Below, piece after piece: positions 1,247 through 62,208 of a DNA stretch of 64,000 bases. Source of the stretch: an uncultured bacterium (GTDB taxonomy: Bacteria > Patescibacteriota > Minisyncoccia > Phycocordibacterales > GWA1-40-21); the NCBI GenBank assembly GCA_903831305.1, contig CAIKXE010000004.1:83524-147523 (forward strand). Reading direction: 5' to 3'. Every line of letters begins with the position of its first letter. Positions within the stretch are counted from its first letter, which is position 1. The position numbers and the translations under genes are program-made. Below the pieces are notes generated by a model. It made no database searches. It saw only the letters and a list, made by a program, of their open reading frames with translations, and was not told the DNA's origin.

Positions 1247-3725
1247 AACTTACTTCCGTTTCACTTCTATTATAAACATAATCAGTGGCGAGGATTTTTA
1301 GAGTATTTGTGGTACTGATGGCTTTTATGTTTGCTGGAGTAAAAGAAAAAAGGAAAGGAGAAACAGAGGAAGAGCCAATATAGGTACTGTTTAAATAAAA
1401 ATCTAATTTAGAAATCGGGAAAGTATTCTGACTCGTGGTTTGGATAATTATTTTTTGGTTTATGTTATAAGTTTGGTTTTCAACTGGGCTGACAATGATG
1501 ACCTTGGGGCTTCGGGCGGGGGTGTGAATATCATCTTTGGTGGCGGGCTTTATAGGTTGAGTTAGGCTCTGCGTTTTTAGCCATTGTTGTACTGGATATT
1601 CCCAGTGATCAAATTGCGGATCGTCACTAGGGTTTTCCGGTACCGCGCCCCAAGGGTCGGCTTTGTTTACCCAGTATAATATTTCGTGTACATCTGGAAT
1701 ATAGACTTCTACTTTGGTTTCATCCGGGGTAAATTCTGTGGCCAATTTGCCAGATATTTTATCAACCGTAAAAAAATCATAACCTTGCCAAACACCTCGG
1801 AAAACTGGTTTTATTTCCTTGCTCGTTGGGGTTGGAGCCGTAAAATATTCTTTAGAAAAAGAGGGTAGAGCTTCATCCATAAAAGCGCGCCACATGGGAG
1901 CAATAACCATGCCAGCCACCTTTTTATCAATAGAGGTATTGTCATTGTTTCCCGCCCAAGACCCTACTACCAAGTTTGGGGTATAACCAACAATCCAAAC
2001 GTCACGGAAGTCGTTTGTTGTACCAGTTTTAACCGCCACTTGTCGGTCGGAAAAATAAAGAGGGGACCGCGTGCCATAGGCGGGGGTTCTGGCTATGTTG
2101 TCTGACAGAATATCAGATATTTTATTAGCACTTTCCTCAGATAAAACTGCTTCCGGGTTATAAGTAGCTTGTTCTAGTATTTCACCGATTGAATTTTCTA
2201 CTTTCAGAATAGAGAGATAAGGGTTTCTTACGCCGGCATTGGCAAAGACCCCATAAGCACTAGTGAGTTCTAAGGGCGAGACTTCGCCACCTCCTAACAC
2301 CAATGTCAGACCATACTGATTAGCATCACCAAGGCTAGTAATACCCATGTTGCGAGCGGTGTCTAAAGAGTCCTTCACACCAGCGAGGTAGAGGGCTTTA
2401 ATGGATGGAATGTTTCGGCTTTGGGCTAGGGCATCGCGCAGAGTTATAGGCCCTAAATATTTGCTATCATAATTTTCCGGCATATAACAATCTTCAGGAT
2501 TGGTGTCACCTATTGGTTTGCCTTGAGCAGTACAGGTGGTTTGAAATTCGGTTGGTAGGTCAAAAAGAACGGTTTCCGGGGTATAACCCTTATTAAAGGC
2601 GGTGGCATAAACAAAGGGTTTAAAGGTAGAACCTGGTTGGCGGTGAGCAAGGGCGACATTAAAGTTTCCCTGTATTTCTTTGTCAAAGTAGTCACGAGAA
2701 CCCACCATCACTAGTATTTCACCGGTTTTGGGATCAATAGCTACTAAGGCCGCATTTTCCGCATTATAACTTATCTTATTTTCTAAAGCGTATTTTTTTA
2801 CCACCGCTTCGGCTTTGGCTTGCAAATCATAATTTAAGGTAGTTATTACTTTTAGGCCGTCCTCTCGAACTGCTTTTTCTCCATATTTATCCTCTAAATA
2901 TTGTCTGACATATTCCACAAAGTGGGCAGCTTTGATACCGTTTGATTGCTTTGGTTGAAAAATCACCACTTCAGCCTTAGCGGTTTTATACTCAACGTCG
3001 GTAATCATTTTGTTTTCTAATAGTCGGGACAAGACTAGATTTTTTCGGTTGTCTAACTTATCTTTATTGTTTCCATAGGGAGAATAATAGGTTGGGGCGT
3101 TTGGGATGGCGGCCAGATAGGCCGCTTCGGCTAGGGTAACTGAAGCTGCGTTTTTCTTAAAGAAGGTCTGAGCGGCTTCTTCTACTCCATAAATACTACC
3201 ACCATAAGGATTTTCGTTTAGGTAGACGGACAGTATTTCGTCCTTACTCATAATGTTCTCTAGTCTGATGGCAAGTACCCACTCTTTTATTTTTCTAGAA
3301 ATAGCATATTCAGAAGTTAGTAAAGAATTTTTTACAACTTGTTGAGTAATGGTAGAGCCCCCTCCGACCCCGCCCATAAGGTGGGCCAAAGTGGCGCGAA
3401 TGATGGCCTTGATCTCTATCCCACCATGGCTATAAAAACCGGTATCCTCAATGGCGATGGTGGCATTTTTAATATAAGGGGAGATTTTTTCAAAGGAGAC
3501 AACCTGTCTTTTAATGTCTTGATTGAGGTCAAAAAGTAGTATTTCTCCGGTTCGATCATAGATTTTAGTGCTTTGGGAGACCGTTCTTTCTTCAAAAGAA
3601 CGCAAGTCTGGCATTTTAAAGGTAGAAATCCAGAAAGTGATAATACCCAAGCCAATAAAGCCTAGGCTGGCCAAGTAAATAATAGCTTTTTTATAGTGTT
3701 TTTTGATATGTCTCATAATTATCAT
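1230..3725 (-). CDS. mrcA: class A penicillin-binding protein (transglycosylase + transpeptidase) with C-terminal extension
   Basis: N-terminal TM; GT51 region (RKIKEWVLAIRLE...ILSVYLNENPYGG...GVEEAAQTFF); transpeptidase region with STFKP. Confidence 0.85.
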   Translation of the reverse strand: MIIMRHIKKHYKKAIIYLASLGFIGLGIITFWISTFKMPDLRSFEERTVSQSTKIYDRTGEILLFDLNQDIKRQVVSFEKISPYIKNATIAIEDTGFYSHGGIEIKAIIRATLAHLMGGVGGGSTITQQVVKNSLLTSEYAISRKIKEWVLAIRLENIMSKDEILSVYLNENPYGGSIYGVEEAAQTFFKKNAASVTLAEAAYLAAIPNAPTYYSPYGNNKDKLDNRKNLVLSRLLENKMITDVEYKTAKAEVVIFQPKQSNGIKAAHFVEYVRQYLEDKYGEKAVREDGLKVITTLNYDLQAKAEAVVKKYALENKISYNAENAALVAIDPKTGEILVMVGSRDYFDKEIQGNFNVALAHRQPGSTFKPFVYATAFNKGYTPETVLFDLPTEFQTTCTAQGKPIGDTNPEDCYMPENYDSKYLGPITLRDALAQSRNIPSIKALYLAGVKDSLDTARNMGITSLGDANQYGLTLVLGGGEVSPLELTSAYGVFANAGVRNPYLSILKVENSIGEILEQATYNPEAVLSEESANKISDILSDNIARTPAYGTRSPLYFSDRQVAVKTGTTNDFRDVWIVGYTPNLVVGSWAGNNDNTSIDKKVAGMVIAPMWRAFMDEALPSFSKEYFTAPTPTSKEIKPVFRGVWQGYDFFTVDKISGKLATEFTPDETKVEVYIPDVHEILYWVNKADPWGAVPENPSDDPQFDHWEYPVQQWLKTQSLTQPIKPATKDDIHTPARSPKVIIVSPVENQTYNINQKIIIQTTSQNTFPISKLDFYLNSTYIGSSSVSPFLFSFTPANIKAISTTNTLKILATDYVYNRSETEVSFNVEE

Positions 3726-7847: not shown

Positions 7848-8012
7848 CAGAGTATAAATCTCTAAGCAATTGGATCGTTTGCGCGGTTTACGAATTTTTC
7901 CGAGAGGACGGCCTGGTCTACACCTTCGGGTGCTCTGCGAGACCTATCCTTTAAGAACTGTTTAACTTTTGGTATCTAATATTGAAAGTATTGCTTAGAG
8001 ATTTATGTTCTG
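7848..8012. repeat. 17-nt perfect inverted repeat (ataaatctctaagcaat / attgcttagagatttat) enclosing a ~120-nt GC-richer core with a cUUCGg loop
   Basis: seen directly in sequence; see findings. Confidence 0.5.
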
Positions 8013-8102
8013 GATTCTCTATTTCTTTATACTAGAACTATTTTTAATATTTGCAACTGTGGAAAAGTTTTAAGACACAAGATTTTACTCTAGTGAAGCT
8101 GA

Positions 8103-32731: not shown

Positions 32732-33856
32732 ATGAAAAAAATATACATATATTTAGGTTTAGTTGTTATTGTGCTTGCGGGGGCGGTTATGGTTTCTAGA
32801 AATCAAACCACACTTGGGCCGGTCAAGATCGGCGTTATCGGTCCAGTGACTGGTAGCTCCGCTGGGGTTTATTATGAGCCATTGAAAAAGGGGATTGATA
32901 TTGCTCTGGCGGGGATAAACAAGAGTGGTACTAAATTAGCGGTGGTGTATGAGGATGATCAGCTAGATGGTAAATTATCAGTTTCGGCCTATGCTAAATT
33001 AAAAGCAGAAGGTGTGCGGTACTTTATCCTAAACGGTAGTCCAGCGGCGGCCGCCGTCGCTCCACTGATCAAGGCTGATGGAAACGTGTCCATGGTGCCC
33101 TCAGCCCTCCTGACGGCTTACAAGGATGATAGCCCTCTGACTTGCCGTATTGCTCTGACCGCTGACAATTATGGTCCAGCTTTCACTGATTTGTTCTTAA
33201 ATAAATTAGATAAGAAGCAAATAGTCACCTTGGTTTCAAATACCGAGGGGGCGATGGCTATCTATAATGTATTCAAGGAAAAGTTTGAGGCCGCAGGCGG
33301 GCAGATAGTCCAGGCGGAAACCTTTGGCAAGGATGACATTGATTTCCGTACCCAGATTACTAAAATCAAAGCTAATAAAAAAGCCGAAGCGATTGTGGTT
33401 ATAAACTGGTCAAGCACTATTGTACCTATGCTTACTCAGATAAAAGAACTTGGCCTGACCTTACCGATCTTTGGTGACACGGGGACAATCAAGAATGCGG
33501 CTATCAAGGATTTGACTCTGGCTAACGGAATTACTTTCTTGGACTATTCTTTCACCACTGATGGTAACAATGTTTCAGGCATTGCTCAGAAATTTATCAG
33601 TGATTATGCTTCCTTAAATGGTGGAAGCAAGCCGAGTATCCAAGCCCTCCAAGGTCATGACTCTGTAAGTATCCTGGCTCATGCTCTTGCTCAGGCTGAT
33701 GCTAAGAACCCAACCAGTGTGGCAAACTATATTGTAAATAATATTAAGGATTATGAGCTGGCCGGTGGTAAATTCTCCTTCAACAGTACCTGTGAAGCTG
33801 ATAGAGATATTGCCGTCAGACAAGTGGTAAACGGGGAGATTGTAGATGTAAAATAA
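32732..33856 (+). CDS. ABC transporter substrate-binding protein, Leu/Ile/Val-binding family (SBP-2)
   Basis: VKIGVIGPVTGSSAGVYYE; paralog of SBP-1/3. Confidence 0.8.
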   Translation: MKKIYIYLGLVVIVLAGAVMVSRNQTTLGPVKIGVIGPVTGSSAGVYYEPLKKGIDIALAGINKSGTKLAVVYEDDQLDGKLSVSAYAKLKAEGVRYFILNGSPAAAAVAPLIKADGNVSMVPSALLTAYKDDSPLTCRIALTADNYGPAFTDLFLNKLDKKQIVTLVSNTEGAMAIYNVFKEKFEAAGGQIVQAETFGKDDIDFRTQITKIKANKKAEAIVVINWSSTIVPMLTQIKELGLTLPIFGDTGTIKNAAIKDLTLANGITFLDYSFTTDGNNVSGIAQKFISDYASLNGGSKPSIQALQGHDSVSILAHALAQADAKNPTSVANYIVNNIKDYELAGGKFSFNSTCEADRDIAVRQVVNGEIVDVK

Positions 33857-34564: not shown

Positions 34565-35404
34565 ATGAATACGGAAACGAAGAATGGTCGGCCGGTGAAG
34601 GTTCATTTGGCCATGAGGGACGGTCCAGTTCCCAGGTCGATCAGGCAAGTTCTGCCGATCGTCGGGGATGAGGCCTCCCACACTTACGTGGAGGTCCAAG
34701 CCGAGGCAGACCTCGTCATCTTTGACGAGGTGCGGGAGATCGAACGGGGATACGACAAGGAGAAATCCTACGCGTTCCTGCAGATGCCCGGAGTGAAGGT
34801 TCCGCGTCTGCCGGATAACTGCGAGGTCATCAACCCCCTGCAGATCTTGCCGGGCTTGATCGGGTCCATCAGTAAGGCTCGTTTGAGACTTCCCCCGCCC
34901 GCCATGTCGGCCGTGGAAGAAGAGGAAGAGACGACTGTGTCTTTACTCCCCGACGCCCTGCGTATCCTCGTCATTGAGGATACGCCGCGGCACCAGGCGA
35001 GTGCTAAGCAAGGTCTGGCCGGACACCGACTCATGGTAGCCACGGGGTACGAGGAAGCGATGGAGGTTCTCGGCAACGAGAAGTTCGACGTCGTCCTCAC
35101 GGACCTGCAACTACCCATGTCCTCGCGCACGCTCGGTACCGAAGCGTTCAAGCTCGGTCAGCTGGTGCCTTATGGCCTCATGCTCATGATCGAGGCGGCG
35201 CACCAGGGGGCGAGACATGTGGCGGTCGTCACAGACATGAACCATCACGCGGACTGGCTATCGGCAGCATTCGATCACTTCCGCTACTCGGTGAAAATCG
35301 AGGGAGCGGTCGTGCAGATGATGCACGCGCCGATGAAGCGGGACGCGTCTGGTGAGTCCGTCAAGGACTGGGTCGCCGCCCTTGACCGGCTCCTGAAAGA
35401 GTAG
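34565..35404 (+). CDS. protein with C-terminal CheY-like receiver-type domain (279 aa), GC-rich island
   Basis: LRILVIEDT...DVVLTDLQLPM pattern resembles REC domain; no obvious output domain. Confidence 0.45.
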   Translation: MNTETKNGRPVKVHLAMRDGPVPRSIRQVLPIVGDEASHTYVEVQAEADLVIFDEVREIERGYDKEKSYAFLQMPGVKVPRLPDNCEVINPLQILPGLIGSISKARLRLPPPAMSAVEEEEETTVSLLPDALRILVIEDTPRHQASAKQGLAGHRLMVATGYEEAMEVLGNEKFDVVLTDLQLPMSSRTLGTEAFKLGQLVPYGLMLMIEAAHQGARHVAVVTDMNHHADWLSAAFDHFRYSVKIEGAVVQMMHAPMKRDASGESVKDWVAALDRLLKE

Positions 35405-35582: not shown

Positions 35583-36482
35583 TTGTTTTGGAAAAATTTA
35601 AGGTATAATTTCTCCGTGGAATATTTAATACACCTTGCCATACTCTTTGCTATCTACGTGCCACTGGCGGTGTCACTAAATTTGGTGGTGGGGTATACTG
35701 GACTGCTCTCTGTCACTCACGCGGCCTTTTATGGTGTGGGGGCTTATGCCACTACTCTGCTTGTGGTAAATTTTGGTTGGGGCTTTATCCCGGCTTTGCT
35801 TGTGGCCATGATCCTCTCCGGCCTCCTGGCCACTCTCTTTGGCTTGATCCTCAGCCGTTTCCGAGATGATTATTATGCCTTGGTCTCTTTTGGTTTCAAC
35901 ATTATCGTTTACAGTATTTTATTAAACTGGGAGAGCTTGACCCGTGGCCCCCTAGGGATCCCTGGTATTCCTCGGCCAGAAATATTTGGTCTGACTTTTG
36001 ATTCAAATTTATCATTCTTGATTTTAGCCTTGGCTCTGGCTCTCACGGTCTACCTGGTTTCAGCGGGCATTGTAAAATCATCCCTTGGCCGAGTGCTCAA
36101 AGGGATAAGAGAAGATGAAAAGGTGCTCGCTATCTTTGGTTACAATACCGAGGTTTTCAAGCTGGTCATCTTTGGCCTGACCGCGATGATGGCGGGGCTC
36201 GCGGGTGGTCTCTTTGCTACTTATATTACTTTTATTGACCCTTCCACTTTTGGCCTGAATGAAAGTATTTTTATCCTGGCTATGATTATCCTGGGTGGTA
36301 TGGCTAATCTCCGGGGGTCCGTCATCGGCGCTCTGTTCCTAATCCTCCTGCCGGAAATTCTGCGTTTTGTGGGCTTCCCCTCAGACATCGCGGCCCAGAT
36401 GCGCCAAGTGGTGTATGGGGCTCTCTTGGTCTTGCTTATGTTATATCGTCCCCAAGGATTGCTAGGGGAGTATAAACTGTGA
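35583..36482 (+). CDS. livM: branched-chain amino acid ABC transporter permease (LivM-like)
   Basis: multi-TM permease; paralogous to LivH-like gene. Confidence 0.78.
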   Translation: MFWKNLRYNFSVEYLIHLAILFAIYVPLAVSLNLVVGYTGLLSVTHAAFYGVGAYATTLLVVNFGWGFIPALLVAMILSGLLATLFGLILSRFRDDYYALVSFGFNIIVYSILLNWESLTRGPLGIPGIPRPEIFGLTFDSNLSFLILALALALTVYLVSAGIVKSSLGRVLKGIREDEKVLAIFGYNTEVFKLVIFGLTAMMAGLAGGLFATYITFIDPSTFGLNESIFILAMIILGGMANLRGSVIGALFLILLPEILRFVGFPSDIAAQMRQVVYGALLVLLMLYRPQGLLGEYKL

Positions 36483-42203: not shown

Positions 42204-42593
42204 ATGAAAATTTCAACGGTAAACATTGAAGAAAGGAAGAAACTGGTCCTCAAGGCCGGTGATACGGTGCGTGTTCACCAGAAGATTGTGGAAGGTGACA
42301 AGTCCCGAATCCAGATTTTTGAAGGTTTAGTCATTGGCCGTAAGCATGGTGATGAAGCCGGTGGTACTATCACTGTCCGTAAGGTGATTGATGGGGTAGG
42401 GGTAGAGAGAATCTTCCCATTTTACTCTCCAAACATTGCTAAATTTGAAGTTGTCAGAAAGTCCAAGACCCGCCGTTCCAAGCTCTACAATATCCGAGAC
42501 AAAGCCGCCAAGGAAATCCGTCGTAAGATGAAAAACATCATCAATGCTAAGGAACCAGTAGAAGTAGCCGAGGCTCCAGCTGAAACTAAATAA
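42204..42593 (+). CDS. rplS: 50S ribosomal protein L19
   Basis: typical L19 sequence ([22 protein letters not shown]). Confidence 0.9.
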
Positions 42594-42602
42594 ATTAAAT
42601 TT

Positions 42603-42632
42603 AAAAACCCCGGTTATGATAACCGGGGTTTT
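42603..42632 (+). terminator. hairpin aaaaccccggttat-ga-ataaccggggtttt
   Basis: perfect palindrome; shares the CCCCGGTTAT 10-mer with repeat copy B. Confidence 0.7.
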
Positions 42633-42696
42633 TAGTTGTATATTAATTGGTAGACGCTACAGGTTTGAGGTATTTCTTTTAGCGTGATACATTTAT

Positions 42697-43377
42697 GTGA
42701 TGGGAAAGCGTGGCCCAAAACCAAAATATTTAGTTTCAACTGTTTGGCGATTTGGCCTCGCTTACGCGGTTGGTTTATTGGCCTCTGATGGATGCCTTTC
42801 TTGTGATGGCAGGCATATTGATTTAACTTCGATAGACATAGAGCAATTAGAAAATTTTAACAAGGCACTAGGATTAAATTTTGAAATCGGGTTCAAGGAT
42901 AGAAATTCTAAAAGTAATAATACTGCATACAGGGTTCAAATTTCAAGTGTTTTGTTCTATGAGTTTCTAGAAGGAATCGGTTTTACAAAAAAGAAGTCCC
43001 TGACAATAAAGGAGATAAATTTACCAGATAAGTATTTTGCAGATTTTCTTAGAGGACTATTTGATGGGGATGGGTGTAGCTATTCCTATTGGGACAAGAG
43101 ATGGAGGTCTAGTTTTATGTTTTATGTTGGATTTTGTTCTGGAAGCACTGCCTTTGTTAGTTGGTTACAAGAAAAAATTAAAAAACAAGTAAAGGTAAAA
43201 GGACATATTACTAAATCAAAAAGAAAAAACTTTTATTATCAGTTAAAGTATTCAAAATATGAAGCTGTAAAACTGGTCGGTTTTTTATATAAAAATGGTA
43301 ATGTTATTAAATTAAATAGAAAGTACTTGAAAATAATGAAAACTTTAGGTACTATGAGGAAGTTAGGTGAGATTTAG
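42697..43377 (+). CDS. free-standing double-motif LAGLIDADG homing endonuclease
   Basis: two LAGLIDADG motifs (LLASDGCLS and GLFDGDGCS) ~100 aa apart; ends 1 nt before tRNA-Leu. Confidence 0.75.
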   Translation: MMGKRGPKPKYLVSTVWRFGLAYAVGLLASDGCLSCDGRHIDLTSIDIEQLENFNKALGLNFEIGFKDRNSKSNNTAYRVQISSVLFYEFLEGIGFTKKKSLTIKEINLPDKYFADFLRGLFDGDGCSYSYWDKRWRSSFMFYVGFCSGSTAFVSWLQEKIKKQVKVKGHITKSKRKNFYYQLKYSKYEAVKLVGFLYKNGNVIKLNRKYLKIMKTLGTMRKLGEI

Positions 43378-43462
43378 GCCTGGGTGGCGAAACTGGCTAG
43401 ACGCACTACCTTGAGGTGGTAGCGGGAGCAATCCTATGGAGGTTCAAATCCTCTCCCAGGCA
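43378..43462 (+). tRNA. tRNA-Leu (anticodon GAG)
   Basis: acceptor GCCTGGG/CCCAGGC, anticodon stem CTACC/GGTAG loop TTGAGGT, long variable arm, T arm GAGGTTCAAATCCTC. Confidence 0.8.
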
Positions 43463-43466
43463 CAAT

Positions 43467-43997
43467 ATGTTATATACACGTAAAGGTGATAAAGGCAAAA
43501 CGCAAATCTTTGGCTGTAATCAAAAGCTGTCTAAAAGCTCGGTGATTGCCGAGGCTTTGGGGACACTGGATGAGGCTAATTCTTTTCTTGGTGTAATAAA
43601 ATCCAAGACAATAGATAAAAAGTTAGGCACTGTTATTAATAATGTTCAGGAAAATCTTTTTATTATTCAAGCTGAGGTGGCCGGGGCGGATAAAAGGATA
43701 ACTAGGACCAAGGTATTAGAGCTTGAAAAGATTATTAATCAGATTGAAAAGGAATTACCCCCTATCAAATCTTTTTTTATTTCTGGGGCATCAGAAACTT
43801 CAGCCCTATTTGATTTTGCGCGTACTCTTGCGCGGCGAGCGGAGAGGCGAGCGGTCCAGGTAGCCGAGGAAGGGGTGGCAAAGGTGGGTCCAGAGACCCT
43901 GGCTTACTTAAACCGCCTGTCCAGCTTATTATACGCTTTGGCTAGACAATCAGCCCATAAGAGTGGGTTTAGGGAAGCTATTCCTAAGTATAAATAA
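43467..43997 (+). CDS. PduO-type ATP:cob(I)alamin adenosyltransferase-like protein
   Basis: N-terminal MLYTRKGDKGKT and overall helical-bundle pattern typical of PduO/MMAB family. Confidence 0.55.
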   Translation: MLYTRKGDKGKTQIFGCNQKLSKSSVIAEALGTLDEANSFLGVIKSKTIDKKLGTVINNVQENLFIIQAEVAGADKRITRTKVLELEKIINQIEKELPPIKSFFISGASETSALFDFARTLARRAERRAVQVAEEGVAKVGPETLAYLNRLSSLLYALARQSAHKSGFREAIPKYK

Positions 43998-44060
43998 TAT
44001 ATTTTTTAACCACAGATTTGAGTATTTACATTAACTGATGATTTTTGTATACTTATAAAT

Positions 44061-44534
44061 ATGGATGATTTTAATTGTGATTTTTGTGGTAATAAATTTA
44101 AAAAGAAGAAATCTCAAGTAAAGTTGAGTTTTAAACACTATTGTTCCAGGGTCTGTTCAGAAGGGGGAAGAAAAAATGGTAAACTCGTCCTGTGCTATGT
44201 TTGTAAAATACCTATTTATAAAAAGTTAAAGGATTTAGGTTCTTCAAAGAGTGGTAAGTATTTTTGTGGTCACGTTTGTTGTAATATCTGGACCGGAAAG
44301 AAACAAAGAGCAGAAAACCACCCTAATTGGGTTAATGGAAAGGCCTCGTATAAAAATATTTTAAAAAGGTCAGATTTTTTAAAAGAATGTATTCTGTGCG
44401 GAAAGAATGATATCAGGGTACTTTGTGTCCATCATCTAGATAAAAATAGGAAGAATAATACAATCCAAAACCTGGTTTGGTTATGTCAAAACTGTCATTT
44501 CCTAGTTCATCGATATAATAAAGAAATAAAATGA
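44061..44534 (+). CDS. HNH endonuclease with N-terminal Cys-rich zinc-finger repeats (paralog 1)
   Basis: HHLDKNRKNN...NLVWLCQNCH HNH motif; four CxxC pairs. Confidence 0.7.
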   Translation: MDDFNCDFCGNKFKKKKSQVKLSFKHYCSRVCSEGGRKNGKLVLCYVCKIPIYKKLKDLGSSKSGKYFCGHVCCNIWTGKKQRAENHPNWVNGKASYKNILKRSDFLKECILCGKNDIRVLCVHHLDKNRKNNTIQNLVWLCQNCHFLVHRYNKEIK

Positions 44535-45037
44535 AAGCTTTTTGCAAAATTTGTAGAACTAAATTTTCCCCTAGACCATCCCATGTAAAAAGAGGCTGGG
44601 GGTTATTTTGCTCAAGAGGTTGTAAGAATGTGGGTACTCGCGTTAGACAGAAAGTGTATTGTTTTATCTGTAGTAAGGAATTGTTCAAGACAGCTACGCA
44701 GATCAATCATTCAAAAAGTGGAAAATATTTTTGTGATAAATCGTGCCAGACAATTTGGAGGAATAGCCAATTTACTGGTTTAAGGCATTCAAATTTTAAG
44801 TCAGGTAGTCATACTTATCAAAGTATTTTAAAACGTAATAAGGTTTTTCAAACTTGTGGGTTTTGTGGCGAAAAGGATATAAGGGTTTTAGTTACACACC
44901 ACGTCGACGAAAACCATAGTAACAATGATCTCAATAATTTGGCTTGGCTCTGTCATAATTGCCATACACTGGTACATTATGCTAATGTAGAGAAGCGAAG
45001 GTTTCTTGTTAAACACAATAAGAGCCAGAGCAAATAA
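44531..45037 (+). CDS. HNH endonuclease with N-terminal Cys-rich repeats (paralog 2, overlaps paralog 1 by 4 nt)
   Basis: HHVDENHSNNDLNNLAWLCHNCH; KSGKYFC shared with paralog 1. Confidence 0.7.
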   Translation: MKAFCKICRTKFSPRPSHVKRGWGLFCSRGCKNVGTRVRQKVYCFICSKELFKTATQINHSKSGKYFCDKSCQTIWRNSQFTGLRHSNFKSGSHTYQSILKRNKVFQTCGFCGEKDIRVLVTHHVDENHSNNDLNNLAWLCHNCHTLVHYANVEKRRFLVKHNKSQSK

Positions 45038-45038
45038 T

Positions 45039-45112
45039 GGTAGCTATAGCTCAACTGGTAGAGCGTCCGCCTGTGGCGCGGAAGGTTACCGGATCATACC
45101 CGGTTAGCTACC
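45039..45112 (+). tRNA. tRNA-His (anticodon GUG) with encoded G-1
   Basis: G-1 : C73 pair, acceptor GTAGCTA/TAGCTAC, anticodon stem TCCGC/GCGGA loop CTGTGGC. Confidence 0.75.
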
Positions 45113-45498
45113 CAATATTTATTTTTGTAAGTATCTTCTTATTTTACTTTGTGTTTTGAAGTCTATTTTGATATGATTTCTAGATGCAGCAGTTATATTA
45201 TGAGTCTCCCGATAAAAAGAACCACGTAAAGGAATTATTTAGTTCACCTTTTGTTGGTCTTTGGAATTTTTATCGATAATATTCAGTCGGTCGCTGCTGT
45301 CCTATTATTTATTTTTAGGGCGGGTATTGATTCTGTTTTTTCTTTTTATAATGCTTTTCCTGGCAAAGACAACTCTGGGATGATAGACAGGATTTAGAAG
45401 GAGAAGCTCTTTGGCTGAACGTTCCAAATCTTTAATTGCTATTAAGTGTAATTCTTTGTATAATCTAACTATTATTAATAGCCTTAAACACCATAAGA

Positions 45499-61624: not shown

Positions 61625-61794
61625 GACCCTTACAGGGTCAGTACCCGTGTTTGGATTTTTTATTCTCCTTCGAAAGACTCAGGATCTAAAAAATCTCAAA
61701 CAGGCTTCGCTTCCGCCCCGTAAGCAAAATCATTTGCTTACTCATCTCCACATAACAAAAATCGCCCATCAGAATGAGCGGGTTTTTGTACATG

Positions 61795-62208
61795 TGGAGA
61801 TGGGCGGAATCGAACCGCCGTGCATAAGAGTATCCTAATTGCTTCTACAAAGTCTAGTTAATTTATCTTCACTTGCGTGAATTTAAGTCTGTGATTTCAA
61901 AAAGAACAAAATGATCACAAACCGATCCTCTAATTTCTTTCCGTACCGAGAAAATTACGGAATATAATCTAATTTTATGTCACCCAGACCAGTTTATTAG
62001 ATATGGACTGATTGGATGCCGCTTAGGTTTGTTTTATGAAACGTAAGCGAAAGCAAAGTTGTTGGCCGCAAAATATGGGGACACAACAGACTTTACTCTT
62101 GAAACAATGCTATTAGCAGTTGTTTGTTTATTAACATTTTAGGTGTGTATAATAATGCACCACTTTGCGCAATCAAGGACAGATCAGATGTCTAGGCCGA
62201 TCATCCCC
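61795..62208 (-). ncRNA. ssrA: tmRNA (ssrA), ~414 nt
   Basis: 5' GGGGATG pairs with 3' CATCTCC-A; 3' T arm GGCGG-TTCGATT-CCGCC; smpB 0.4 kb away. Confidence 0.6.

Follow-up and report, generated by a model that had tools for sequence, protein, structure and literature searches.

Free-standing LAGLIDADG and HNH endonuclease genes beside tRNA genes in a Patescibacteria chromosome: probable intronless homing with transfer of a linked tRNA allele

Why would endonuclease genes lie directly against the genes of transfer RNAs (tRNAs) in the chromosome of an uncultured bacterium? The question is raised by a stretch of 64,000 nucleotides (nt) of contig CAIKXE010000004.1 (GenBank assembly GCA_903831305.1, positions 83,524 to 147,523), from a member of the Patescibacteria; we refer to this whole stretch as the window. 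Between the ribosomal protein L19 gene rplS and a tRNA-His gene, the window carries one LAGLIDADG endonuclease gene, immediately followed by tRNA-Leu(GAG), and two tandem HNH endonuclease genes, immediately followed by the tRNA-His. An initial annotation had described a single cluster of three selfish nucleases and had suggested either tRNA-targeted homing or a degraded mobile element or intron. We compared the region with about 180 related loci in all, labelled by L numbers (for example L006 and L159). We consider it probable that the genes encode free-standing homing endonucleases, and that these practise intronless homing on tRNA genes, co-transferring a linked tRNA allele. The comparative evidence comprises the anatomy of the loci, a strict tRNA linkage, presence/absence polymorphism, purifying selection, phylogenetic incongruence and tRNA replacement (in L159 and at the tRNA-His of the window). 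On this basis we infer that the nucleases cleave, exactly which site they target and that the linked allele is immune. The suggestion of tRNA-targeted homing is thus supported, by presence/absence data and by the linkage of each nuclease family to one tRNA.

The linkage was counted over all the DNA of the related loci. There, 93 open reading frames (ORFs) of the LAGLIDADG family lie immediately 5' of tRNA-Leu(GAG), one lies immediately 5' of tRNA-Leu(CAG) and one immediately 5' of tRNA-Phe. Distant viral matches aside, no LAGLIDADG-family ORF was found elsewhere in the loci compared. For the HNH family, 20 ORFs are immediately 5' of tRNA-His and one is immediately 5' of tRNA-Ser; the remaining members are the upstream partners of tandem pairs, with the exception of one in L087. 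All loci selected through the LAGLIDADG nuclease show the order rplS, LAGLIDADG gene, tRNA-Leu(GAG), with mostly 0-12 nt between the stop codon and the tRNA. In the window the two features do abut, with a gap of 0 nt (the stop codon ends at 43377) and not the 1 nt first reported. This abutment had been singled out as striking. At many sites that lack the nuclease, however, it is the stop codon of rplS that lies 0-12 nt from tRNA-Leu, so the tight spacing is a property of these compact genomes and not of the nuclease.

A tRNA-linked nuclease gene might also be an ordinary genomic island, or a defence nuclease that landed at a tRNA gene by the action of an integrase or by chance, in which case the tRNA fragments found upstream of the nuclease genes (described below) would be attachment-site duplications. 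tRNA genes are well known as hot spots of integration, many islands have partial tRNA duplications at their borders, and in L169 a resolvase gene lies beside the HNH/tRNA-His unit. We nevertheless find this explanation hardly credible. Nuclease and tRNA stay associated in more than 100 loci, and one nuclease gene makes up the insert. The duplicated piece comes from the 5' part of the tRNA and is found upstream, which is the opposite of attachment-site geometry. No recombinase or integrase gene was found at 41-47 kb of the window, nor in or beside either of its nuclease cassettes.

The LAGLIDADG protein matches Pfam LAGLIDADG_3 with 33.5 bits (cut-off 22.5), and both motifs are present, GLLASDG with D31 and GLFDGDG with D125. 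Across 34 homologues the two aspartates and the flanking glycines are invariant, and the strand segment that follows the second motif, SYSYWDxRWxSSxMFY, is invariant or nearly so. A concern that the double motif might be spurious is thereby removed. In the AlphaFold2 model (predicted local distance difference test score, pLDDT, 90.4; predicted template modelling score 0.88) the topology is a doubled alpha-beta-beta-alpha-beta-beta-alpha. Foldseek matched it with probability 1.00 to I-Tsp061I, I-AniI, I-SceI, I-DmoI and intein endonuclease domains, and further fold matches include the bI3 maturase and WhiA (3hyi, 3hyj). Identity to the solved LAGLIDADG enzymes is just 11-19%, and a PDB sequence search with the protein returned no match, so that the fold search was needed. 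The protein has no second domain and no match to the WhiA Pfam models. Translation most likely starts at ATG 42700, because all homologues begin with MGKRGPKPK; this gives a protein of 225 residues and not the 226 originally counted.

More than 2650 full-length homologues of this protein were found. A profile search of 1.8 billion cluster representatives retrieved 285 clusters at an expectation value (E) <=1e-30 and 6500 at E<=1e-10, and named homologues come from Zambryskibacteria, Nomurabacteria, Kaiserbacteria and Paceibacterota. A phage origin of the gene was considered and rejected, as viral contigs hold relatives at 26% identity only.

Is the gene a fixed part of these genomes? In a scan, relatives of the LAGLIDADG gene were present in at least 539 Patescibacteria species, and 80 species genomes were fetched for context. 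Across the nuclease-selected loci the protein is 51-57% identical, similar to L19, the PduO-type adenosyltransferase encoded downstream of tRNA-Leu, and RluA, encoded upstream of rplS. A reading of the gene as universally conserved and hence domesticated was dropped, since these loci had been chosen by the nuclease itself and a scan anchored on rplS exposed empty sites. The same scan showed RluA-rplS-tRNA-Leu(GAG) to be a widespread arrangement. In the rplS-anchored sample the spacer between rplS and tRNA-Leu is empty in 41 loci and occupied by the LAGLIDADG gene in 9. The comparison with relatives that had been proposed as a check on mobility therefore finds the nuclease genes not universal in their context; likewise, the HNH pair is missing from L006 and L008, the closest relatives of the window.

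Occupancy was mapped on a host tree built by neighbour-joining from L19 and RluA (93 loci, about 350 residues). It requires 18 Fitch changes, compared with a mean of 24 for shuffled labels. On this tree the empty locus L092 is sister to the occupied L032, and the occupied L159 is nested in an otherwise empty clade. The correlation between LAGLIDADG and host identities is only moderate (Mantel r 0.55), and 16 of 63 loci have concordant nearest neighbours. Individual pairs depart in both directions. L068 and L080 are 92% identical in the host proteins and 67% in the LAGLIDADG protein, and for L014 and L027 the values are 87% and 59%; conversely, L046 and L065 share 53% host identity and 78% LAGLIDADG identity. 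In the closest pair, L031/L060, synonymous divergence (dS) is 0.26 for the LAGLIDADG gene versus 0.06 for rplS, a fourfold difference. The ratio of nonsynonymous to synonymous divergence (dN/dS) of the LAGLIDADG gene is 0.06-0.15, and rplS, RluA and PduO fall in the same range. An intact and constrained enzyme that is patchily distributed and discordant with its host is good but not conclusive evidence for a homing endonuclease gene sustained by repeated invasion.

The sequence upstream of the nuclease gene bears on how such an invasion would proceed. A pseudo-tRNA fragment, spanning the D loop, the 3' D stem, the 5' anticodon stem and the anticodon loop TTGAGGT of tRNA-Leu, lies between the rplS terminator and the LAGLIDADG gene (Table 1). 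The score of its local alignment with the tRNA-Leu of the window was reached by 7 of 5000 shuffles. Nearly all of about 80 LAGLIDADG genes have this element upstream in the conserved form AATTGGTAGACGCTAYTACCTTGAGGTGATATAAT, with the ATG 6-7 nt further on. In L069, where a paralogue precedes tRNA-Leu(CAG), the same element is present with CAG replacing GAG. A diverged paralogue in L130 (6819-7559; 37% identity) lies immediately 5' of tRNA-Phe(GAA), and the rplS/tRNA-Leu site of that locus is empty; a tRNA fragment was looked for upstream of this paralogue and none was found.

The fragment is also part of the predicted promoter of the nuclease gene. Most loci have TAGACG as -35 and TGATATAAT as extended -10; in the window and its relatives the anticodon loop of the fragment supplies TTGAGG as -35, and the extended -10 is TGaTACATT. 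In all LAGLIDADG and HNH genes examined the -10 box lies 6-7 nt before the start codon and there is no Shine-Dalgarno sequence. From this position of the -10 box, the LAGLIDADG mRNA appears to be leaderless, starting at A42700, and this mode of expression may be general among these nucleases, or in these genomes as a whole. Promoter-like sites in the region are not above chance (12, compared with a shuffle mean of 9.0 and a standard deviation of 3.6); the promoter assignments rest on conservation across loci and not on the promoter scan.

One locus appears to record an invasion. In L159 the upstream piece is a whole tRNA-Leu 5' half, whose acceptor strand GCCCAGGTGGTGGAA and loop TTTGAGGG match the native tRNA-Leu of the empty sister lineages. 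Behind the nuclease, the functional tRNA-Leu (GCGCGGGTGCTGTAATGGTAGCCA...CCCGCGCAC) belongs to a type known from distant occupied lineages. The native 5' half together with the foreign-type tRNA implies that nuclease and foreign tRNA came together, truncating the native gene near position 38. The idea that the fragment is remade from the recipient tRNA at each invasion was tried and rejected, as its anticodon-stem bases match the cognate tRNA no better than chance (1.75 vs 1.89 of 5). Since the stem bases do not follow the cognate tRNA, in most lineages the fragment would be inherited with the cassette or held by its promoter role.

Could these upstream pieces instead be old 5' exons, and the ORFs the relics of group I introns that once sat in the anticodon loops of tRNA-Leu and tRNA-His? 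The anticodon loop is the site of bacterial tRNA introns, and the upstream fragments stop there or just beyond. We regard this origin, which is the degraded intron of the initial annotation, as very unlikely. A search with Rfam at E<=1 over 40-48 kb found no group I or group II intron and no other structured RNA family, and at gathering thresholds the whole window contains nothing but tRNAs and a transfer-messenger RNA (tmRNA). What follows the ORF is a complete tRNA and not a 3' exon, and the ORF has its own stop codon and begins 6-7 nt past its own -10 box. Published tRNA introns of Patescibacteria are in tRNA-Asn and tRNA-Asp, at position 35/36. The statement that no intron or intein host gene is evident therefore stands.

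A second promoter-like sequence lies inside the LAGLIDADG ORF. The motif TTGAAAAT-N17-TAnAnT recurs in the last codons (RKxLKI...) of the ORF in many occupied loci, the window included (43327-43355), and the same motif occurs alone, without the ORF, between the rplS terminator and tRNA-Leu in the empty loci L088, L090, L095 and L096. It is likely the tRNA-Leu promoter, and its presence both in the last codons and at empty sites implies that the LAGLIDADG ORF reads through that promoter. Some empty sites may be deletions that retained it.

Two further features were noted near tRNA-Leu. The motif TTGACAAA lies 8-15 nt upstream of tRNA-Leu(GAG) in L030, L074, L048, L027, L044, L053, L085 and others, either within the end of the LAGLIDADG ORF or after it, and also in the empty loci L095 and L096. 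It is absent from the window and is too near the tRNA to be a -35 box. In the nuclease-free rplS/tRNA-Leu spacer of L124 (about 1650-1790), the real tRNA-Leu is preceded by a second, degenerate tRNA-Leu-like copy (GCACGGGTGGCGAAACT...), which could be the trace of an old event or a tandem duplication.

Differences between the tRNA-Leu alleles at occupied and empty sites point to a candidate target of the LAGLIDADG enzyme. The sequence GGTAGACG[CT]ACTACCTTGAGGTGGTAG is present in 12 of 41 distinct empty-site tRNA-Leu genes and in 0 of 83 occupied-site genes (Fisher 5e-7), and occupied-site tRNA-Leu genes with the same anticodon arm carry D-loop changes. The tRNA-Leu of the window, which reads GGCTAGACG, carries an additional C in its D loop (43397) compared with the common empty-site allele. 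We measured tRNA diversity by a reference-free entropy in occupied versus empty sites. Entropy is 0.78 versus 0.35 in the D arm, 1.19 versus 0.64 in the 5' strand of the anticodon stem and 1.14 versus 0.64 in its 3' strand; in the acceptor stem, variable arm and T arm it is equal or lower at occupied sites. The diversity excess of occupied sites, about twofold, is thus confined to the D arm and anticodon stem. This is the region copied in the upstream fragment, and its size fits the recognition site of a LAGLIDADG endonuclease, which spans about 20 base pairs (bp) and is cut to leave 4-nt 3' overhangs. We read the region-specific diversification, a correlation, as possible escape from cleavage.

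The HNH genes repeat the arrangement with another enzyme and another tRNA. HNH1 and HNH2 are 41% identical (E 3e-42) and their ORFs overlap by 4 nt (ATGA), in agreement with the initial description of tandem paralogues with N-terminal Cys4 repeats. Pfam HNH scores are 17-20 bits, just under the gathering threshold of 21.4. The family alignment shows an invariant CxxC...HHxD...N...NLxWLCxNCH...H preceded by two N-terminal Cys4 modules, and C109, C112, H123, H124, D126, N131, N136, C141, C144, H145 and H149 are invariant in both paralogue types. In the AlphaFold2 model (pLDDT 88.8 for HNH2) the C-terminal domain matches Gme HNH, IscB and McrA (probability 0.96-0.99), with 4h9d among the matches. 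Both the LAGLIDADG and the HNH fold, which were to be checked, are thus confirmed by models and fold searches.

HNH2 has 377 homologues. Those of the HNH2 type that were examined in context lie immediately 5' of tRNA-His(GTG) or overlap it, L087 excepted. The linkage holds in unrelated neighbourhoods, such as L168, beside MscL and a resolvase, and L174, after tRNA-Phe; in L044 a diverged HNH paralogue precedes tRNA-Ser(TGA). Orthologous tandem HNH1-HNH2 pairs are also found in L171-173, L040 and L020, and this recurrence suggests that HNH1 and HNH2 act together. The HNH pair occurs in L171 without a LAGLIDADG gene, and L006 shows the reverse combination. The single cluster first described is therefore better seen as two independent cassettes.

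In L006 and L008, which have no HNH pair, PduO is followed by tRNA-His after 11-14 nt. The tRNA-His genes of these two loci are identical to each other, and that of the window matches them at 48 of 75 positions (64%). For tRNA-Leu, window and L006 match at 84 of 86 (98%). The tRNA-His of the window is thus probably a divergent allele acquired with the HNH pair. Its T loop is odd (45085-45100), with GGATCATACCC in place of GGTTCRANYCC. Odd T loops were also seen in other HNH-linked tRNA-His genes, namely L171 (GGAGCATAACC), L053 (GGGGCAGGTCC) and both L004 and L174 (GTGCAAATC). The tRNA-His of L074 has an odd T loop and no adjoining HNH gene.

Upstream of the HNH genes, remnants of tRNA-His are found again. 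The other HNH loci share with the window the -35 box TTTAC(A/T) and, 6-7 nt ahead of the start codon, a -10 box; in most of them, as in the window, (T/A)ATCCACAG precedes the start codon by about 45 nt. L015 and L004 have a common-type tRNA-His 5' half upstream of the HNH gene, which stops at the anticodon loop in the former and after the anticodon stem in the latter. An inverted repeat CTGTGGA(N4-8)TCCACAG is present upstream of the HNH genes of L090 (about 7990-8015), L174 (about 2940-2965) and L015 (about 3585-3610). Its CTGTGGA half is the remnant of the tRNA-His 5' half, and the window retains AACCACAG only. One possibility is that the (T/A)ATCCACAG motif is a putative binding site.

Taken as homing, these observations suggest the following course of events. 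The first cassette of the window (42645-43463) would consist of a promoter made from the tRNA-Leu pseudo-fragment, the leaderless LAGLIDADG gene with the tRNA promoter in its last codons, and the complete variant tRNA-Leu(GAG). The second (about 44008-45113) would consist of the translationally coupled zinc-finger HNH pair and the divergent tRNA-His(GTG). The nuclease would cut the tRNA gene of a cassette-free genome, the likely LAGLIDADG target being the D arm and anticodon arm (tRNA positions about 14-45). Repair of the break from the cassette-bearing copy would then copy in the nuclease gene and the linked tRNA allele, which may itself resist cutting, and the 5' half of the old tRNA would sometimes be left upstream. 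The essential tRNA would stay functional through replacement, and not through an intron or intein. Co-conversion of flanking markers is seen comparatively, in the foreign-type tRNA-Leu of L159 and in the window, where tRNA-His agrees with its relatives at 48/75 and tRNA-Leu at 84/86.

The main rival to homing is that the LAGLIDADG protein, and possibly the HNH proteins, have been domesticated and work for the cell, for instance by binding DNA or RNA to regulate or mature the tRNA next to them, and are inherited vertically with occasional loss. WhiA, which is among the fold matches, provides a precedent. The breadth of the LAGLIDADG gene, in one fixed context in at least 539 species, favours such a role, as does a dN/dS equal to that of rplS, RluA and PduO. 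The promoter and the N-terminal MGKRGPKPK tail are conserved, and conservation of the upstream tRNA-like element does not depend on the cognate tRNA, as would suit an operator. The fit is poor, however, to several of the observations described above. Empty sites are interspersed among occupied lineages, the nuclease and host phylogenies are incongruent, and L159 acquired the gene along with a foreign tRNA. Many relatives live without the nucleases, and the closest relatives of the window do so without the HNH pair. Both catalytic aspartates are invariant, unlike in WhiA, and two unrelated nuclease families show the same arrangement with different tRNAs. We therefore judge domestication rather unlikely.

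Several points weigh against repeated homing and should be set beside the evidence for it. The LAGLIDADG gene occurs very widely and under a constraint equal to that of ribosomal protein L19, which also fits a host function. The occupied loci were gathered through a nuclease search and the empty ones through an rplS search, so that the sampling differs. The host tree is short and derives from two neighbouring genes that could themselves be co-converted. When the empty spacers were searched for nuclease remnants, only L112 gave a match, a weak one to C-terminal codons (E 0.04). The fragment is not regenerated at each invasion, and L159 is the only fresh-looking event. The target site comes from correlations, partly post hoc, and cleavage itself is predicted. 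The relation between tRNA similarity and nuclease similarity is weak (r 0.13, and 0.08 with host), and is uninformative. Finally, the HNH family gene of L087 (4021-4524) has no tRNA-His called downstream by ARAGORN, and is the sole exception to the linkage.

How do these cassettes compare with known systems? The closest characterised case, the free-standing GIY-YIG endonuclease SegB of phage T4, recognises the conserved T-psi-C motif of tRNA in DNA, and its cutting of a nuclease-less genome leads to its gene being co-inherited with the neighbouring tRNA genes (PMC2330249). The cassettes resemble SegB, and also the intronless homing of SegF, SegG and MobE, in having a free-standing nuclease gene beside tRNA genes and in the proposed logic of nuclease, linked target and co-conversion. 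They differ in several respects. The host is the cellular chromosome of Patescibacteria and not a phage, the enzymes are LAGLIDADG and zinc-finger HNH proteins and not GIY-YIG, and each nuclease is paired with one particular tRNA, immediately 5' of it. Here, a pseudo-tRNA fragment is built into the promoter and the native tRNA is apparently overwritten. The putative target is the D arm and anticodon arm and not the T arm.

LAGLIDADG genes are known in ribosomal RNA (rRNA) insertions and introns of bacteria of the candidate phyla radiation (CPR) (PMC11270868). Intron-borne LAGLIDADG and HNH genes appear in papers on the rRNA insertions of CPR bacteria and on the tRNA introns of Patescibacteria; the present arrangement is not described in this literature, and a wider literature search found nothing closer, an absence from the literature searched that is not proof of novelty. 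With the intron- and intein-encoded monomeric enzymes I-Tsp061I, I-DmoI, I-AniI and I-SceI, the LAGLIDADG protein of the window shares the fold, the size class and the two motifs with a catalytic aspartate, and the targets of intron-borne LAGLIDADG enzymes are likewise highly conserved structural RNA genes. In contrast to these enzymes, there is no intron or intein around the gene, and the target would be kept intact by replacement and not by splicing.

Two other comparisons are instructive. WhiA (DUF199) is a domesticated LAGLIDADG protein that has lost the catalytic residues, has a C-terminal helix-turn-helix domain and is conserved across lineages. Like the protein of the window, it is chromosomal in bacteria, free-standing, double-domain and under purifying selection. 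The protein of the window differs in keeping both aspartates, in having no extra domain, in matching LAGLIDADG_3 and not the WhiA models, and in its patchy distribution. In Allomyces, a mobile GIY-YIG ORF reportedly brought a replacement for the end of atp6, with the displaced native fragment left alongside. As in that reported case, the element would invade an essential gene and supply a substitute copy of part or all of it; there, by the same account, the 3' end of a mitochondrial protein gene was replaced in frame, whereas here a tRNA gene would be replaced and its 5' half displaced.

If the mechanism holds, intronless homing, known from phages and organelles, would also take place in the chromosomes of uncultured bacteria of a very large group, with essential tRNA genes as its targets. 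Beyond introns and inteins, this could be a third harmless route into an essential gene, in which a selfish nuclease brings a replacement copy. It would also explain the sharp differences in tRNA-Leu and tRNA-His between close relatives in these genomes. The nuclease genes, currently annotated as hypothetical or generic, include compact monomeric LAGLIDADG enzymes of 225 residues, in hundreds of clusters at 50% identity and with a guessable target, a resource of possible meganuclease scaffolds.

A bolder extension, which we hold tentatively and with more doubt than belief, is that these are phylum-wide "tRNA gene drives" of the Patescibacteria. In such a scheme, small free-standing nucleases, LAGLIDADG for tRNA-Leu and tRNA-Phe and zinc-finger HNH for tRNA-His and tRNA-Ser, would each cut one tRNA gene in the D and anticodon arms and overwrite it with their own resistant allele. 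The pseudo-tRNA piece would be the promoter, and perhaps an operator bound by the nuclease. Were this true, the nucleases would be a main cause of the unusual tRNA-stem diversity in these bacteria, and may persist by excluding or converting incoming DNA of competing strains.

The features of the window are listed in Table 1. The rplS terminator, the PduO-type gene, tRNA-Leu(GAG) and tRNA-His are all at the positions first assigned to them, as confirmed by Pfam and TIGR models, ARAGORN and Rfam, with the start of the PduO-type gene refined to ATG 43467. The conserved backbone is tRNA-Val, RluA, rplS, tRNA-Leu(GAG), PduO and tRNA-His, into which the two cassettes are inserted, and the order of terminator followed by cassette is shared by most related loci. 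PduO sits between tRNA-Leu and tRNA-His in many loci without either nuclease (for example L096 and L108). Because it is present in loci that lack one or the other nuclease, it belongs to the backbone and to neither cassette.

Table 1 Positions of the nuclease cassettes, backbone genes and associated elements in the window
Feature	Position	Strand	Remarks
rplS	42204-42593	+	Ribosomal_L19 match, 114 bits
rplS intrinsic terminator hairpin	42601-42635	+	16-bp stem then T run; left border of the LAGLIDADG cassette
Pseudo-tRNA fragment	42645-42671	+	Copy of tRNA-Leu(GAG) positions about 14-40, one inserted base
Predicted LAGLIDADG promoter	42665-42693	+	-35 TTGAGG (fragment anticodon loop), 17-nt spacer, extended -10 TGaTACATT; ATG 7 nt downstream
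LAGLIDADG endonuclease gene	42700-43377	+	225 residues; mechanical ORF from GTG 42697; free-standing, monomeric, double-motif
Promoter-like TTGAAA-17-TACTAT	43327-43355	+	In last LAGLIDADG codons, 22 nt upstream of tRNA-Leu
tRNA-Leu(GAG)	43378-43463	+	ARAGORN and Rfam; variant allele
PduO-type adenosyltransferase gene	43467-43997	+	Cob_adeno_trans 157 bits, TIGR00636 152 bits; ATG start 43467
AACCACAG motif	44008-44015	+	Reverse complement of tRNA-His anticodon-loop CTGTGG; conserved upstream of HNH genes
Promoter-like TTTACA-17-TATACT	44025-44053	+	7 nt before HNH1 ATG; predicted leaderless
HNH1	44061-44534	+	Two Cys4 zinc modules and HNH domain; upstream member of tandem pair
HNH2	44531-45037	+	Zinc-finger HNH endonuclease; member abutting tRNA-His
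tRNA-His(GTG)	45039-45113	+	Encoded G-1 at 45039, body 45040-45113; 1 nt past HNH2 stop
tmRNA gene	61792-62208	-	Rfam 98 bits

Some observations concern the surroundings of the cassettes. The start codon of PduO is 4 nt past the 3' end of tRNA-Leu, which has no encoded CCA, and there is no space for a ribosome-binding site; 3'-end processing of tRNA-Leu would yield a nearly leaderless PduO mRNA. In one relative (L004/L005/L022, 3063-4475), RluA and rplS are separated by genes for a reverse transcriptase and bAvd, a pair that is the hallmark of diversity-generating retroelements. Elsewhere in the window, the segment 34000-35500 has a G+C content of 52-57%, against about 40% for the genome. Pfam gives its ORFs no match or, for 34565-35404, a weak one to Response_reg that stays below the cut-off. 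The segment is flanked by genes of a branched-chain amino-acid type ATP-binding cassette transporter, for the binding protein (32732-33856) and the permease (35583-36482), and may be a foreign insertion.

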